From Octopus vulgaris (Eukaryota): 64,000 nucleotides of DNA. The notes below the pieces were generated by a model, which had not been told where the DNA came from, did not search any database, and saw only the letters and a program-made list of their open reading frames with translations. How positions within the stretch are numbered: the stretch's first letter is position 1; every line of letters starts with the position of its first letter. Made by a program: the position numbers and the translations under genes. Positions 2,800 to 64,000 of this stretch are shown one piece after another. Location of the stretch: assembly GCA_951406725.2 (NCBI GenBank), contig OX597834.1, positions 38,874,001-38,938,000 of the forward strand, written 5' to 3'.

Positions 2800-3350
2800 C
2801 GTTTGCATCGATATATACACACACACGCATATACAAAAACACATTATGCACACATATTTGTGTATGTGTGCACGCATATACAAACACGCATATACAAACA
2901 CACATTATGCACACATATTTGTGTAGTGTGTGTCCGTGCGCGCACATTTCTATGCTCGTGTCTGTACGTGTGCAAGTTTGTGCGAATGTTTTTCAGTATG
3001 CGTACAAACATACATACACACATACATACATACACATACGTGCATACATACATACATACATACATACATACATACACACATACACACATACATACATACA
3101 TACATACATACATACATACATGCATACATACATACATACATACATACATACATACATACATACATACATACATACATACATACATACATACATGAACTCA
3201 TGTATTATGAACTCTGTTTAAATGTAGACTAGAACTGCTGTTGGTTGTTGTTGTTATTGCTGTTGTTAATATTATTATTTTCATCATCATCATAATCATT
3301 ATTATCGTTGTTGTTGAATATTATTAATATTATCATTATTATTATTATTA

Positions 3351-57370: not shown

Positions 57371-58815
57371 TTTATTCTTTTTCTTTTCTCTTTTGCAATT
57401 TATCCTCCAATGGCAAAATCCTCATCTCAGTAGGTGTTGTTGGTTCAAAGTTTATCTCTGCTGCCCTGTTTCCTCGTCTGTTAGCATATTGCTCTACTTG
57501 TAGCTTAAATGTGATTATTACAGGTCACCTCAATACACCTGCCACAGGTAAGGAAGATAATTTGCAGGACCGAAAATGACTTGTGACACCAGGGAAGACC
57601 TCGTATGAAATGGACACATAGACTCTTCACTCTTTTACTTGTTTCTGTCATTTGACTGTGGTCATGCTGGAGCACCGCCTTTAGTCGAGCAAATCGACTT
57701 CTGGACTTATTCTTTGTAAGCCTAGTACTTATTCTATCGGTCTCTTTCGCCAAACCGACTCTCAAGTATAAAGAAGCAAAAAATTCCTGTTCATTTAAAC
57801 AGGAAAGCAACCTTTAGCAATTTCTCAATAGATGGCGCTATCGAGCTTGCGTCATTAGTAAACAAACAGCACAGCAGCAACACACAACAGAATGGAAAGG
57901 TATACATAAAATGGAGATTACAGTATGTATCTGTATGTACATCACACACACACAAGTATAAGCAAAAGGAAAGAGATATCTTGTACATATTGAAAATATG
58001 AGACAAAATACTTTAAAGATTTGAATTTTAATGGATAAAAGATATCCATGTTATGTATCATCAATATACTCATGCTTATTACATGGGCATATATGCGTGT
58101 GTATATATAATATACATATATATATAGATGTATATATTTAATGCACACACACATATATATATATAGACAGATGTATATATAAATGCATATATATATATAG
58201 AGACAGATATGATACAGAATTCCACATATATATATATATAGACAGATGTATATATAAATGCATATATATATATATATATATACACATACGATACAGGTCA
58301 AACAGGTGTTTGAGATTATAAATATATATATATATATATATATATAACAGACACACACAATCAAATGCACACACTTAAATACCTACACATAGGCAAATTT
58401 TCATAGAAACGTACAAAAAGACAATTTTCTTAAAAAAATCACCATTCTTTTAAAAACCAAAAGAATACAGAAGAGGAGTGGAGCGGGGGAGGGAAAGTGT
58501 AATTGTTGGAAGAAGAATAAATTAGAGAAAAATCAAAGAAAGTTCATCCAACAGAAGTTTTTTTTTGTTTTTTTTCTTTTTTTACCAGTTTTTGTTGCTG
58601 TTATTTAAAATCAAGATTTCGGTTCAGAAATCCACATCATAGGTATGTGTACATGCAGCGGCCTACAGTTGTTTCTCAGTCTGTGTGTGTGTTTATGCAT
58701 ATGACCCGTCCACGTTTTCTTTGTATCGTCTGACTGGATGTTTTGTTGTCCCCTTTTTGTGTCACCTGACTGTCTGGATGTTTCGCGTTCTTGTCCCATT
58801 TTTGTATTTTATTTT

Positions 58816-58886
<71 letters not shown>

Positions 58887-59058
58887 TAGGTAGATATAAG
58901 AGGGATGTCCACATAGTGGTTATCCCTCTTATATGTATGTAATATAATTTTTCTGAATCATCAGATTGTTCTATATGCTAGACCACTGTTTTTAAATTGA
59001 TATTAATCAAACTAATATTCAATTTTTAACCCTTATTATTTTAGATAGATAGATAGGG

Positions 59059-59110
<52 letters not shown>

Positions 59111-59153
59111 AGAGAGAGAGAGAGAGAGAAAAAGAAATAGATATGTGTGTGTG

Positions 59154-59206
<53 letters not shown>

Positions 59207-59931
59207 GCACACATATATGTGTATGTATGTATATATATTTCATATATAAATATAGACAGAAAGAAAGAGAGACACTTTTATATATATAAGTCAATATTTT
59301 GTATCACATTATATGTATATGAAGTGTATGGTCTTTAAATATACAGAAAATAATATTTTCCTCTGAGTGTGTATATATGTGTGTGTTTGTGTGTGTGAAT
59401 GTAATATTTGTATGTACGAAGTATGAGTGCATATGTCTAATACATACAAAAAATAAAATATTACACACAACACAAACACAACTTTTAGAAAAATAAAATC
59501 AAGTGTTGACGAGAGGCGAGGTGTGTAGGAGGAGGAGAAGCTGGTAAGGAGGGTGGTGGTGGATAAGAAATAAAAAGTGTGTAGAGAATGAGTATGTGTG
59601 TGTGCAAGTGTGTGTGTGTGTGTATGTGTCACTGGGATGAGAAATAGGTATGGGCCTTCGGGTAAGAGGAAAGGCTGGGAATATTCATCAGGTTGGTTTC
59701 GTTAGATTCCCGTTGTTCTGCTTCCTTCGAAGAACAGTGGTGAAGTAGTGGGAAAGTGGAGCCTGGTGCCTCACTAGAATCATATCAACACACAAGATGG
59801 TTCATTTTAACTGTTGCAGTTTAGTCAATAGACGATTTGATATACATGTATATATATATATACATATACACAGACATATGTATATGTATGTATGTAAGCA
59901 CACATCCCAGCACTGCTAGATTCCTTGTCCG

Positions 59932-59988
59932 CTACCGTTTGGTGGCATATTGTTCAATATAGCTCTGTACTTTACATTTGAAGGAGTC
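59932..59988 (-). CDS. UBE2F: UBE2F-like last coding exon with stop
   Basis: Long pyrimidine tract + CTGCAG acceptor. DSFKCKVQSYIEQYATKR* resembles the UBE2F C-terminus (F..KV..YI..YA). The 3' UTR continues leftward; its end was not defined. Confidence 0.92.
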   Translation of the reverse strand, partial: DSFKCKVQSYIEQYATKR

Positions 59989-60997
59989 CTGCAGATAGAG
60001 AAAGAAAAGAAGAATAAAACTGAGTGTTAGAGAGGAGAGAGACACACAGTATCCGTCTATTCGTTTGCCTCTCTGAGTAATATAAATAAGGGGTTCAAAA
60101 TTGCACAAAAAAAAAAACCCAAAAAATAAACAGGTGAGGAAACAACAAACAAGGTGTATAAGTTTGATGCTCAGGAGAAATGGAAGTGTTTGATATTTCG
60201 AGCCTATGCTCTTTTACAGAGAGAAATGACCACGGTGTGTTTGAGTGAATGAGTGTGTATGTGTGTGTATTGAATTTTGAATTAGAAGCATTTCTAATAA
60301 TGGTTTCAAATTTTTGCAACAAGGGCAGCAATTTTTGTTGCGGAAGGAATGGGTCGATGTACCAACTGGTACTTAATTTGTCGACCCCGAAAGGATGAAA
60401 GACAAAATCAACTTTGGTGAAATTTGAACTCAGAATGTAGTGATAGGAGAAATACTGCTAAGCATTTCGTCCAGTGTGCTAACGACTCTGCCAGCTCGCC
60501 ACCCCAGAAGCATCTCTAATAAGGGAAACATTACTAATATCCCATACTCAATGTGTTTTGTTTAAACGCTCACTGGAAATGGGATTTGTCCAGAGAGGAG
60601 TCCCTTTAAGACCTCAAGTGTTTTAAAAATACTGAATACATCAAACCAGAAACAAATTGCTCTGTAGGTGAATGAGAATGGTGGATATCAGTATTTCACT
60701 GTTATTGCAGTCCATCAGTACCGTATGATTGAGTCACCTTGAAACAAATTTGAATTACTTGTCTGAAGTATATATATACACAGCATAAAACCTATGAGCT
60801 GATGGGCAGCTGCACTGCAAAAGTGAAACAAAATTAAATTTTGAAAGGTTGTTCAGCAAAAGAGACTGATAGAATAAGTACTAGGCTTACAAAGAATAAG
60901 TCCTGGGGTCGATTTGCTCGACTAAAAGGCAGTGCTCCAGCATGGCCACAGTCAAATGACTGAAAAAAAAAAAACCTAGAACTCTAGGATGAAATAC

Positions 60998-61060
60998 CTT
61001 ATCTCTGGCGTAATTTTCTGCAGCTTCCACATTTAGAGGGTCATCAAAGTTCAGAAGATC
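60998..61060 (-). CDS. UBE2F: UBE2F-like penultimate coding exon
   Basis: TTTCAG acceptor and GTATTT donor. 63 nt = DLLNFDDPLNVEAAENYARDK (UBE2F DLLNFDDPLN motif). Confidence 0.95.
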
Positions 61061-61589
61061 CTGAAACATAAAACATACAGTTTTAGTAATAGTTGCTGTC
61101 AATCACATTTCTAATCCATCATCATCATTTAATGTCCATCTCCCATGCTGGCATGGTTGGAACATTTGACAGGAGCTGGTAAGTCAGAGGGCTGCCATCA
61201 AGCTCCACTGTCTGCTTTAGCATGGCTTTTATGGCTGGATGCCCTTCCTAACACCAGAGCATGGTCAAGAAGTCTGCTTTGAAACCATGTGGTCCTTTAG
61301 TCCTGTAGCATTTCAACAAGCCACATCTGGTCAAAATATTCTGCTTGTTTTATGCTCAAACTGGCCCAGATCCAGCCTCTCACACCTATCCTGCAATGTC
61401 ATTCTAAAAACATACAATCACTGAGATATAGAAGCTACAGAAGAACAATGTGTGATTAATTCAAAGCAACATGAATAAATGATCATTATGTTTGACACAA
61501 TAATAAGAAAGCTAAAGGATTAAGCTTCAATCCCATAGCATGGCACATTGGATGTCTTTCACCATAACCTCAAGTTGGTAATTGTCCTA

Positions 61590-61850
61590 AAAGTAAGTAA
61601 AGTAAAGTTACCTTCTCGAATCATACCGACTCACAAGAGCCAGTTTCCTGGTTTCCATGGCGTATAAATTCCTTACCTGAACGGGACGCTGGTCTGTCAC
61701 AGGGTTACTCGTTTTTGCCAGCTGAGTGGACTGGAGCAATGTGAAATGAAGTGTTTTGCTCAAGAAAAAAATGCATCACCCCGTCTAGGAATCGAAACCA
61801 CAATCTTACTATCATGCGACCAACACCCTAACCACTAAGCGACATGCCTC
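61590..61850 (-). mobile_element. SINE family D head with a V-domain-like alternative tail
   Basis: Same head as family D, then ccctgtgacagaccagcgtcccgttcagg (V-SINE-domain-like) and a (TTTAC)n end. Confidence 0.7.
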
Positions 61851-61964
61851 CACAATGCCTTGGGAGTGAAATCTGGTTAATGGAAACAGTACAAGAAGCC
61901 TGCCATGTTTGTGTATGTGTGCATACTTATAGATGTCTTGCAAACAACTTGCACATGCAAGTGC

Positions 61965-62365
61965 TACCAGTTAAAAGCTCCATATACCGGAAGCGAGCAA
62001 GTGTACGGGGTCATCAGGAGAGAATGCATGCCGTTTCGGGGCCTACCTCTCGACGGCATCAATGCGCACCGGCCCCCTCACTGATATGAGGCCCCGCTTG
62101 CTAGATCAGCTGGTTATGAAGAACTCAATATACTTCTAGCCATCGCTCATCGTCTCTTTTTAACCAATCCAGTGGCTAGCCTTCTCCACTGTAGATTGGA
62201 TATCAGTCATGGTGGTATTGACTTTACGATGATTTAGGCCTAGCGATAACAATAGTCGTCTCAACACTGTGTCCAACAAACCCTCTACATCCAACTTCGA
62301 TAGGAAAATGTTCCGCTTTCCAGCCTGCATCTTCACATTCCTCGAGGAGGTTTTCATAACGGTTT
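61965..62365 (-). mobile_element. 3' fragment of a HERO/NeSL-like restriction-endonuclease (RLE) non-LTR retrotransposon in a UBE2F intron
   Basis: Frameshifted remnant NRYENLLEECEDAGWKAEHFPIEVGCRGFVGHSV / RRLLLSLGL...VEKASHWI / WLKRDDERWLEVY* (62364-62125). PIEVGCRGF and EKAS.W.W.KR are typical of HERO C-termini. A structured 3' UTR follows. Confidence 0.85.
61996..62102 (-). ncRNA. Candidate hammerhead-like ribozyme with non-canonical (pseudoknotted) strand order
   Basis: CUGAUGA at 62017-62011, GAAA at 62037-62034, GUC at 62054-62052. Stem I 6 bp, stem II 6 bp, stem III 7 bp, all in correct register, plus an outer closing helix. Confidence 0.6.
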
Positions 62366-62665
62366 TACCCATGGACCCCTTTGATTGCTATTTTATTCTG
62401 GTGGACCCTCATAGCCATTCTATGTCTAAAAATCAGTCTTATAGCAATTTCTTTTAAAAATTCCTATTTTGTTTTGAACACATTCTCTTGTGTGTGTGTA
62501 TGTATATATATATATATATCACACACACAGGCACAATGATGGTTGTGTACTTAAGAAGTTCATTTTCCAACCACCTGGTTTCAGTTCCAATCCCATTGTT
62601 TGGCAATGGACAAGTGTCCTTTACTATAACCTAGGATAGAATAAAGCTCCTTTATTCTAGTAGTG

Positions 62666-62755
62666 AAGGCCAATCTCAAAACGCCGAGCCTTACAAAGGA
62701 AATGACAGAGGACCGGGATATGTGGCGCATCGCTGTATTCAAGAAGGCCTGCCCA
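62666..62755 (+). mobile_element. RTE LINE C-terminal fragment in a UBE2F intron
   Basis: KANLKTPSLTKEMTEDRDMWRIAVFKK resembles the RTE terminal DR..WR motif. Confidence 0.6.
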
Positions 62756-62871
62756 CTACAACAGAATTGAGATCTTGAAACCAAGGTGCCATGTGAAAAG
62801 TACTGGAGTGGTGGTGCCACATGAAAAAAAATGATGCTAGTCCCACATTAAAAGCACTAATTAATACTTAC

Positions 62872-62930
62872 TGAAAATAAGGAATTTAGTCCCCAAATAA
62901 CATCCTTCAGGCGTCTGGTAGGGGCCCAAC
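62872..62930 (-). CDS. UBE2F: UBE2F-like internal exon
   Basis: TAG acceptor and GTAAGT donor. 59 nt = (G)WAPTRRLKDVIWGLNSLFS, matching the UBE2F GWAPTRTLKDVVWGLNSLF segment. Frame consistent with both neighbours. Confidence 0.95.
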
Positions 62931-63077
62931 CTATGGAAGAGAAGAGTTATTATGAAAGAACCAATGGAAATGTCTTCAGCAATCATAAGTCAGATTTAAA
63001 ACAGAAGTGTTGTGATACGCATATGTGTGTGTGTGTGTGTGTGTTGAGAGAGAGAGAGAGAGGGAGGAATTACTCAC

Positions 63078-63180
63078 CCATCATATCATATGAATTTTGA
63101 CGCAATAAACTCAAGCACACCTCCCCATCTTCATCAATGTTTGGGTGCCATATACGAGTTTCACAGCGCACTTTGGGAGG
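63078..63180 (-). CDS. UBE2F: NEDD8-conjugating enzyme UBE2F-like, internal exon with HPN motif and catalytic Cys
   Basis: Pyrimidine tract + CAG acceptor and GTGAGT donor. 103 nt translating [34 protein letters not shown](G), a UBC-fold active-site segment. Phase 1 end matches the next exon. Confidence 0.95.
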
Positions 63181-63489
63181 CTGAAGAGAAAAAGAGGATA
63201 AGGTAACATGGTGGTGGTGGTGGTGGGGGGGGGGTTAAGGGGCAACAGCAGCTGAGAGATTAAGGGGAGATAATAGCTGTGAGGATAAGGAAGGTGCCTT
63301 TGACATTTTCTCCCATTCAAGGTTTGTTGTTTTTTAACCTAATATTCTATAAGCAATTGTTTATACCACTTTCTGTTTAGAATTCCACAGTTAAAAATAA
63401 TTTACTTCATATTTCTTGAAGTTTCTAAATTCTTATATTGTAAATCCTCATCATTATTATTTAACGTTCGATTTCTTTGCTGACACGAG

Positions 63490-63760
63490 TTGGACAGTTT
63501 GGCAGGAACTGCACTAGACTCTATTGTCCATTTTGGTACAGTTTCAATGGCTGGATGCCCTTCCTTATACCATCCATGGATTGGACAGTTTGGCAGGAAC
63601 TCCACTAGGCTCCATTGTCCGTTTTGGTACGGTTTCAATGGCTGGATGCCCTTCCTAATACCATCCACGGGTTGGACAGTTGGCAGGAACTGCACTAGGC
63701 TCTGTTGTCCATTTTGGTACAGTTTCAATGGCTGGATGCCGTTCCTAATCCCATCCACTT
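63490..63760. repeat. ~83-bp tandem triplication inside an RTE-tailed element
   Basis: ttggacagtttggcaggaact.cactag.ct..attgtcc.ttttggtac.gtttcaatggctggatgccc occurs three times. Confidence 0.9.
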
Positions 63761-64000
63761 TACAGAGAGTACTGGGTGCCTTTTGTGTGTTCCAGCACCA
63801 GTGCTTGTTACATGGCAACAGCACATATAAATATATGTACACACACTCACAAACACACATTGTACAAAAAAACACAAGCCCTGCACCATGCATAAACACA
63901 GGTGCTAAACAGACCACACCTACAGACTTCCACCCAATACCAAAACAGAAAGCCTCCGTTCATATGCACAAGGTACATTTATTTATGGACACCTTTGATT

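Follow-up and report, generated by a model that had tools for sequence, protein, structure and literature searches.

Introduction

LINEs are not thought to spread by way of an RNA that is cut, circularised and copied by rolling. Such a template scheme has been argued before for Penelope-like elements (PLEs) and for retrozymes. The hammerheads of PLEs cleave as dimers and a circular intermediate has been proposed for these elements (PMC6765202), and internal initiation of reverse transcription by PLEs has been shown in vitro (PMC11167929). For retrozymes, RtcB-type ligation has been shown in vitro (PMC7229834). The closest described ribozyme is the hammerhead of type SGC. Eckert, Friedrich, Weinberg and Weinberg 2023 (PMC10085705) defined the hammerhead blocks S, G and C and validated type SGC, which comprises the HRIMA-1 motif and its variants, in vitro at rates of 0.007-0.19 per min. 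In the parts of that paper considered here it is assumed that interruptions of block C do not exceed 1-2 nt, and the direct joining of stem III to the interaction helix is raised as a puzzle.

In this study we analysed a 64-kb stretch of Octopus vulgaris DNA, referred to as the window, in which a preliminary description had reported a hammerhead core of unusual strand order within the 3' UTR of a LINE. We compared this copy with its family in the genome and with distant relatives, and we consider what the copies imply about the template from which the element is reverse transcribed.

Results

The element and its copy in the window

The element has a unit of 3738 nt and a single frame of 1175 codons, intact in young copies, that encodes an N-terminal C2H2 zinc finger, a reverse transcriptase (RT; Pfam RVT_1, E 3e-19), a CCHC knuckle and a PD-(D/E)xK nuclease of the RLE type. 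The solved structures closest to its protein are R2 proteins (E 7e-18), R2 and L1 are the nearest overall, and the nearest named protein match is from an octopus. In a by-eye comparison the RT agrees motif for motif with the HERO-1_BF and HEROTn rows in the supplement of PMC7650587. Pfam gives RVT_1 only, with neither the GIY-YIG nuclease nor the telomerase-like RT of PLEs, and the intact 1175-codon ORF of young copies separates the element from retrozymes, which are non-coding and non-autonomous. The 2.8-Gb genome holds 2421 candidate tail matches, of which 40 were scored and 30 retrieved, all 97-100% identical. The host of the ribozyme is a young, high-copy HERO-clade LINE, and the preliminary assignment of the motif to the 3' UTR of a HERO-like RLE LINE is supported.

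Several features of the family and its relatives were observed in passing. One old copy (the second match at L021) is 72% identical and has a decayed core, indicating that activity of the family spans a long time. The 5' UTR carries five GGAAAGAC repeats spaced about 20 nt apart (L281:5618-5745, unit positions 36-124), and spaced repeats of a similar kind are present in the distant relatives L059, L051, L046, L067 and L048; the GGAAAGAC repeats are a candidate signal for protein binding, promoter function or cap-independent translation. One branch of relatives has a tRNA-like stretch with a GGTTCGAATCC-type box between the stop codon and the motif (L040, L041, L051, L053, L054, L056, L059 and L068), and ARAGORN called no tRNA in the tRNA-like stretches of the UTRs of that branch (nine loci). 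Some long copies lie in pairs a few kb apart (L251/L252 and L256/L257), and L252 has an inverted element piece upstream that resembles twin priming.

The copy in the window (Table 1) is about 96% identical to a young copy and has neither a poly(A) tail nor a clear target duplication. Its host gene, which we take to be UBE2F-like, has exons at about 63180-63078, at 62930-62872 and from 61060 onwards on the minus strand, and since the copy is sense-oriented within an intron of this gene (approximately 61061-62871) its ribozyme belongs to that pre-mRNA. Comparison with 30 copies of the family identified private changes at 62029, 62028 and 62006, of which the two substitutions at 62029/62028 weaken helix X. 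The hairpin-like stretches of the tail lie at 61992-61978, where the nearest relatives are similar, and at 61962-61947. With its fixed end, from which reverse transcription would start, the tail at 61934-61992 is a candidate protein-binding and initiation signal.

Table 1. Features of the LINE copy and its hammerhead motif, in coordinates of the window
Feature	Position	Strand	Remarks
Host intron (limits approximate)	61061..62871	minus	Gene with a ubiquitin-conjugating domain; LINE copy in sense orientation
HERO-clade RLE LINE copy, 5'-truncated	61934..62365	minus	Last ~430 nt of the 3738-nt unit
C-terminal remnant of the single ORF, end of RLE domain	62125..62365	minus	Frameshifted in this copy; stop codon 62127-62125
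Distal outer helix, 5' strand	62097..62102	minus	Partner 62001-61996; 8 bp in the family
Outer helix O, 5' strand	62092..62095	minus	Partner 62010-62007, immediately after A9
Hairpin H	62077..62090	minus	Adjoins G10.1; folds in 17/18 parsed motifs
Stem II, 5' strand	62071..62076	minus	G10.1 = 62076
Helix X, 5' strand	62064..62069	minus	Preceded by a single bulged purine (62070); counterpart of the type-SGC interaction helix
Stem III strand up to U16.1, plus C17	62052..62057	minus	Predicted scissile bond 62052/62051
Stem I strand 3' of the site	62046..62051	minus	G62051 = first base of the 118-nt mini-copies
Block G	62030..62043	minus	Stem II 3' strand 62043-62038; G12-A13-A14-A15.1 62037-62034; stem III partner strand
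Helix X, 3' strand	62024..62029	minus	Pairs with 62069-62064
Stem I partner (62023-62018) and C3-U4-G5-A6-N7-G8-A9 (62017-62011)	62011..62023	minus	
Outer helices, 3' strands	61996..62010	minus	
Remainder of the 118-nt tail	61934..61992	minus	Two short hairpin-like stretches and a fixed end
Flank TCTA	61930..61933	minus	Matches bases 1-4 of the element's 5' UTR; such microhomology is typical of the family

Architecture of the ribozyme

A complete hammerhead core is present at 62095-62007 on the minus strand, inside the LINE 3' UTR, and all of the hammerhead segments listed in the preliminary description were found where it had placed them. Helix O and hairpin H stand in place of the A9-G10.1 linkage. 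In all 18 parsed motifs A9 enters helix O and G10.1 follows hairpin H, in nearly all of them without a spacer, and O and H could stack end to end and so bring A9 and G10.1 side by side. The preliminary description had not included a sixth helix, X: what it took for a 4-nt linker between stems III and I forms this helix together with the two preceding bases, and the helix covaries in relatives. The pairs of its 7-bp stem III do exist in the window copy, with the private changes at 62029/62028, but in the 30 copies compared the family has 5 bp and a possible G-U, and the inner outer helix has 4 bp. The link between stem III and helix X is 0 nt on one strand in this family. On geometric grounds a helix X that continues stem III in this way would be hard to fit into a one-molecule hammerhead without fraying, and docking of the stem III loop on the junction of a second copy would require no fraying.

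The Rfam scan of 58000-64000 gave no hammerhead among 82 weak matches up to E 10. In single-sequence folding the region was no better than shuffles (z 0.2), as is to be expected because the helices cross. When a young copy is folded with nested pairs only, the minimum-energy structure pairs stems I and II wrongly. In L042, L044, L050, L051, L057, L059, L060, L068 and L083 the loop of hairpin H is the palindrome GAUC, possibly a kissing loop for dimer formation in that branch; in the branch of the window the loops of hairpin H are short and non-palindromic. An upstream U-G-A before stem II was considered as a source of G8/A9 and was rejected, as it is not conserved in the second branch. The loop letters of the AUCAG that had been suggested to sequester CUGAU are not conserved across the nearest relatives, which speaks against a general switch of this kind.

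Conservation and covariation

Relatives were collected by scanning metagenomes with a 20-protein alignment, which gave 49 loci with 26-62% identity over long matches; nine, in which the match fell short of the C-terminus, were excluded, and 40 UTRs were tested. A descriptor of the full architecture found one site only in the window, both strands included, and matched 18 of the 40 UTRs of distant relatives, one of them (L047) partly mis-parsed. It matched none of 7200 dinucleotide shuffles and none of 42 reverse complements. The motif is not a chance occurrence. Among the 22 UTRs that the descriptor did not match, five are shorter than 150 nt, two are cut by the end of a contig and several are visibly decayed; a few (L039, L048, L065, L066 and L081) contain no motif. 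In a scan of viral contigs 30 stretches fitted a pattern and none was confirmed.

Because this descriptor demands the core letters, the search was repeated with the helices only. Twenty of 34 UTRs scored at least 66, the others scoring at most 56 or giving no parse, and 18 of these 20 parses carry CUGANGA, GAAA and U-H in the unpaired gaps. Position 7 is occupied by all four bases in the helix-only parses, and position 17 by C, A or U and never by G. Freedom at N7 and an H17 that is never G are known tolerances of the hammerhead.

Covariation was assessed on 18 non-redundant motifs, in which the paired cells number 90/90 for stem I, 71/72 for stem III, 72/72 for stem II, 90/90 for helix X and 72/72 for helix O. 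Each helix position has several pair types, and none of 5000 strand swaps scored as high, in a test that ignores relatedness and uses fitted parses. In an unfitted MAFFT alignment of the eight nearest sequences 91% of cells pair, against 40-53% in slid controls, and 15 of 26 pairs change on both sides, a number reached by none of 500 shuffles; helix X is only 67.5% paired on this alignment because its register shifts. No base serves two helices. The motif lies on both sides of the deepest split in a midpoint-drawn protein tree of 40 rows, and the core is kept across elements of 30-55% protein identity. With the core conserved and stems I, II and III covarying across relatives, the preliminary view of a genuine core with reversed block order, open between A9 and G10.1, is upheld, and the motif order that it attributes to fish HERO 3' ends is present in distant HERO-like elements (18/40 UTRs).

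Junctions at the predicted cleavage site

The 5' junctions of genomic copies were mapped with patterns that demand two mismatches upstream of an anchor. The interval from -8 to +6 around the site gave 47 matches, of which 24 are clean truncations and 13 are internal rearrangements; the other 10 had poor 3' parts and were dropped. Half of the clean truncations in these 15 nt (12/24) begin at G62051 (binomial p 1e-8, or 5e-7 without the ambiguous L136 and L178; L119 and L126 would add two). Two further intervals, +13 to +30 (55 matches, 16 clean truncations) and -60 to -51 (25 matches, 19 truncations, counted despite a flag for a variable G-run and one of them on the anchor edge), were mapped as well, and the other 42 mapped positions hold 46 junctions, with a mean of 1.1 and a maximum of 4; as the three intervals use different anchors, only the test within an interval is strict. 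The genome gave 67 matches in which position 17 is not C; 30 were retrieved, and six of these begin exactly at G62051.

The mini-copies that begin at G62051 are 118 nt long and include at least three subfamily haplotypes, and at 15 loci no convincing target-site duplication was seen. They amount to about 1% of the 2421 candidate copies, so that the hotspot signal comes from about a dozen loci. At L241 there is a 19-nt duplication that ends exactly at C17, and at L140 G62051 is joined to the interior of the ORF. Frequent imprecise template jumps at the site were considered and are not supported, with only one or two indels among the 47 matches. A genome-wide search for copies whose element sequence breaks off within 15 nt around the site gave six matches, none with a clean 3' end at C17. 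The hotspot at G62051, and the lack of copies ending at the site in that search, show the site to be a 5' end of some templates and not the priming end. Cleavage at the 62052/62051 bond, as proposed in the preliminary description, is supported by the 12 of 24 truncations, and it is highly probable that the RNA of this family is cut at this bond in vivo.

Partial tandems and shared variants

The preliminary description did not mention the organisation of long copies. In the best 40 of 162 candidates, 11 copies reach the start of the 5' UTR and all 11 continue into a further 3' end of the element. An exact pattern for the start of the 5' UTR identified 19 loci in the whole genome, every one preceded by the 3' end of the element, in register and with no added bases. 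The upstream pieces are 21-1973 nt long; 16 of the 19 extend past the site and none stops there. None completes a second unit, two full units being absent from all 19 mapped loci. The 5' ends of the upstream pieces do not coincide, and no transduced host flank common to several loci was seen. Full-length copies starting at the cut site, as with the 5' ribozyme of R2, were looked for and rejected (0/19). The density of truncations, which is biased to young copies, is 1.5-2.0 per kb beyond the unit boundary compared with 0.9 per kb inside. Tail-to-head junctions are also found in the distant relatives L046 (a contig with a 55-nt terminal overlap), L051 and L059.

Among the 19 loci that contain the start of the 5' UTR, six carry internal deletions (L299, L301, L303, L305, L307 and L309; about 0.56-1.45 kb per unit). 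These derivatives retain the 5' UTR and the 3' end, are partial tandems as well, and can be described as non-autonomous, retrozyme-like passengers.

Four loci have private variants, nine in all, that both of their repeats share and that no other sampled locus shows (41-165 covering matches): two at L277, one at L282, five at L283 and one at L287. At L278, L279, L281 and L284 the overlaps are short or invariant, and three of the seven two-repeat loci with an overlap of more than 230 nt have no private shared variant. Differences between repeats are not shared across loci, with the exception of a G-run indel. Four of the five private variants at L283 are A>G changes within 104 nt (unit positions 3108-3211), each after A or T, and may record A-to-I editing of one template molecule that was read twice. 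Editing of template RNA as a general signal was rejected, the asymmetry between A>G and T>C not being significant (63 vs 34, p 0.18; 12 vs 3, p 0.12).

At the 3' end of the element, which lies 118 nt beyond the site, there are 111 distinct flanks, which echo the start of the 5' UTR (T 98, C 62, T 77 and A 75 of 110); three flanks match it over 7-8 letters.

Discussion

A proposed circular template and the alternatives to it

The reading that we favour, with a probability of roughly 0.6, is that the ribozyme cuts out a unit-length RNA, that the ends of this RNA are joined into a circle, and that reverse transcription starts internally and rolls. The source copy would be a partial tandem, in which a 3' piece of the element is followed by a whole unit, and a read-through transcript of such a copy would hold two ribozymes. 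Cuts at both GUC sites would free a permuted monomer of 3738 nt, running from G62051 with a 5'-OH to C62052 with a cyclic phosphate; the first 118 nt of this monomer would be the final stretch of the 3' UTR, and its last base would be C17. Because helices O, II, X and III pair the two cut ends, joining into a circle would be favoured, and closure could be carried out by the ribozyme itself or by an RtcB-type ligase. The element protein would then prime target-primed reverse transcription internally, at the junction of 3' UTR and 5' UTR, 118 nt downstream of the site. On an unjoined monomer the RT would run off after 118 nt and leave a mini-copy. On a circle it would cross the site, copy the ORF and sometimes roll past one unit, thereby regenerating a partial tandem. 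Circles would normally give 5'-truncated copies and rarely copies of 1.0-1.5 units, and as only the latter could make new monomers, the window copy would be a dead end.

From the genomic copies we infer chemical cleavage, ligation, a covalent circle and internal priming in a HERO-clade LINE. Other origins can be imagined for single observations: a strong RT stop could produce the 5'-truncation hotspot, a tandem source that is seldom active could have passed on the shared private variants, and the microhomology of the flanks could arise from a target preference of the endonuclease. A break at A9/G10.1 of the size seen here has no precedent in the parts of PMC10085705 considered, which is a point against the favoured model. 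It is speculative that cleavage requires two copies, by dimer formation or docking in trans, and so spares host pre-mRNAs that contain one copy. If the same geometry holds for the published type-SGC ribozymes, these may also act as dimers. In a wider reading, only a little less likely than not, the HERO-clade LINEs would be autonomous elements with a covalently closed circle of 3.7 kb as their genome RNA. A split, non-circularly permuted hammerhead would make this circle and be active only when two copies meet, so that single intronic copies are harmless, with cap-independent translation and internally primed rolling-circle target-primed reverse transcription (TPRT).

It is also conceivable, though a good deal less probable, that the ribozyme cuts and the monomer stays unligated, as a nicked circle held by the four helices across whose nick an R2-type RT jumps. 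Such a template would account just as well for the hotspot, for the partial tandems and for the variants shared by both repeats; L241, with its duplication ending at C17, and L140 resemble jumps at the site, and PMC6765202 cites work in which R2 RT copies across non-continuous templates. The junction pattern detects 1-nt and some 2-nt indels, yet one or two were seen at the site among 47 matches, and the upstream repeat stops at the site in 0/19 loci. Jumps across the nick would therefore have to be almost always exact.

Slightly less likely again is that the templates are uncleaved linear read-through transcripts of tandem sources, in which case occasional cutting would act as a brake on expression and the mini-copies would be by-products. 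About 99% of copies do span the site intact, and PMC6765202 describes uncleaved oligomers as possible templates of Penelope-like elements. The tandems themselves fit this poorly, with two full units at 0/19 loci, no common 5' end of the upstream pieces and no sign of a shared transduced host flank; private variants are common to both repeats of a locus, and differences are not shared between loci apart from the G-run indel. Upstream pieces would, moreover, shrink with each generation and nothing would regenerate them, a role that rolling around a joined circle would fill.

We consider it improbable that the fold is a non-catalytic docking structure for the element protein, like the 3' UTR of R2, and the hotspot an RT stall. 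Its position in the 3' UTR, the tight geometry of helix X and stem III and the split block C would suit a docking role. Against this stand helices that do not share a single base, an unpaired core that matches the catalytic code exactly across elements of 30-55% protein identity, and a stop that coincides to the nucleotide with the predicted scissile bond. The 3' partners of every helix would also have been copied by the time the RT arrives, so that no structure should be left to stall it.

RLE elements are often target-specific and their RTs jump, and an ordinary LINE mRNA, running from unit start to unit end, might yield partial tandems through end-to-end jumps or through insertion at the end of an old copy. 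HERO is in part microsatellite-specific according to PMC4640811, and the flanks look like the start of the 5' UTR. We regard this explanation as very improbable, since none of the 19 copies begins at the unit start with a host flank and every one of the 19 junctions keeps the register with nothing inserted. Independent insertions are excluded by the private variants that repeats share, and the hotspot at the hammerhead site would be left unexplained. Trimming of the template 3' end for TPRT, suggested in the preliminary description and in keeping with a cut predicted near the 3' end of the element, can practically be discounted, as the end of the copies, with 111 distinct 3' flanks, lies 118 nt past the site and none of the 6 matches that leave the element within 15 nt around the site does so cleanly at C17.

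If reverse transcription from a joined circle is the correct reading, it would explain how a promoter-poor, 5'-truncating element regenerates complete copies, and an R2-like protein that naturally reads circular RNA would be relevant to RNA-templated gene insertion. The sequence evidence points to an R2-like LINE clade that uses a ribozyme-cut, probably circular and internally primed template, and not a linear mRNA copied from its 3' end.

Relationship to known hammerheads

The HERO motif shares with types I, II and III all of the conserved core nucleotides, the pairs G10.1-C11.1 and A15.1-U16.1 and the N-U-H site, and its covarying stems I, II and III abut the core. The A9-G10.1 link, however, is neither direct nor of 1-2 nt, and the cyclic order is S-G-C, in place of the C-G-S of these types. 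Types I, II and III are nested three-way junctions, whereas stems I, II and III/X of the HERO motif cross one another, and after cleavage the two ends are held by one helix in classical hammerheads and by four in the HERO motif.

With type SGC, as described in PMC10085705, the motif has in common the S-G-C order (site - GAAA - CUGAnGA), a short linker between stems I and II, an interaction helix (X) that joins the far ends of these stems, and a distance of 0-2 nt from stem III to that helix. The validated SGC-1 and SGC-2 have the same set of helices and the same bulged G before the interaction helix. The difference lies in block C, which is uninterrupted in type SGC and split in the HERO motif, with a stem II strand and an interaction strand 5' of the site. 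By our own reading of the SGC-1 and SGC-2 oligos in the PMC10085705 supplement, these have one extra U where the HERO RNA is opened, and the HERO motif has two helices at that place. The motif is a type SGC hammerhead whose opening falls at the only linkage that tolerates one, A9/G10.1.

The patterns described in PMC10085705 would miss the split form, since an insertion of more than 1-2 nt at this position is excluded by assumption. The examples considered from that paper come from metatranscriptomes, and the HERO motif is found in animal genomes. A term search of its supplement text found neither 'HERO' nor 'reverse transcriptase', and 'HERO' is likewise absent from the two retrozyme papers checked, including the portion of PMC7229834 covered. 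The literature searched, which took in few subscription journals and no Repbase Reports, did not connect HERO with hammerheads, partial tandem copies or circular RNA. Of the 'new strand topology' claimed in the preliminary description, the S-G-C order was already published as type SGC in PMC10085705, and what is new is the split of block C; neither the A9/G10.1 opening bridged by two abutting helices nor the HERO host was found in the literature searched. To the six hammerhead topologies enumerated under the block rule the motif adds a seventh, in which that rule is broken, and with it a non-circular permutation is present in thousands of copies in animal genomes.

Relationship to other retroelements

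Like the HERO element, PLEs are autonomous retroelements found in partial tandems, with hammerheads in the terminal repeat. Their RT is telomerase-like, their nuclease is of the GIY-YIG type and their hammerheads are minimal type I, whereas the RT of the HERO element is R2-like, its nuclease is an RLE and its hammerhead is permuted. Retrozymes, known as plant LTR and animal non-LTR forms (PMC7229834), share with the scheme proposed here the hammerhead processing of tandem transcripts to monomers and circles. Unlike the HERO element they are described there as non-coding, 150-1000 nt in length, non-autonomous and equipped with classical hammerheads. R2 and the LINEs with 5' HDV-like ribozymes resemble the HERO element in their single ORF of the RLE type and in a ribozyme that frees the element from a co-transcript. 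In R2-type elements, however, one 5' ribozyme yields a linear RNA that is copied from its 3' end, while the ribozyme of the HERO element lies in the 3' UTR and its copies, apart from the 118-nt mini-copies, have no fixed 5' end. By analogy, the proposed HERO scheme would work like that of PLEs and retrozymes, in an element that is a member of neither.
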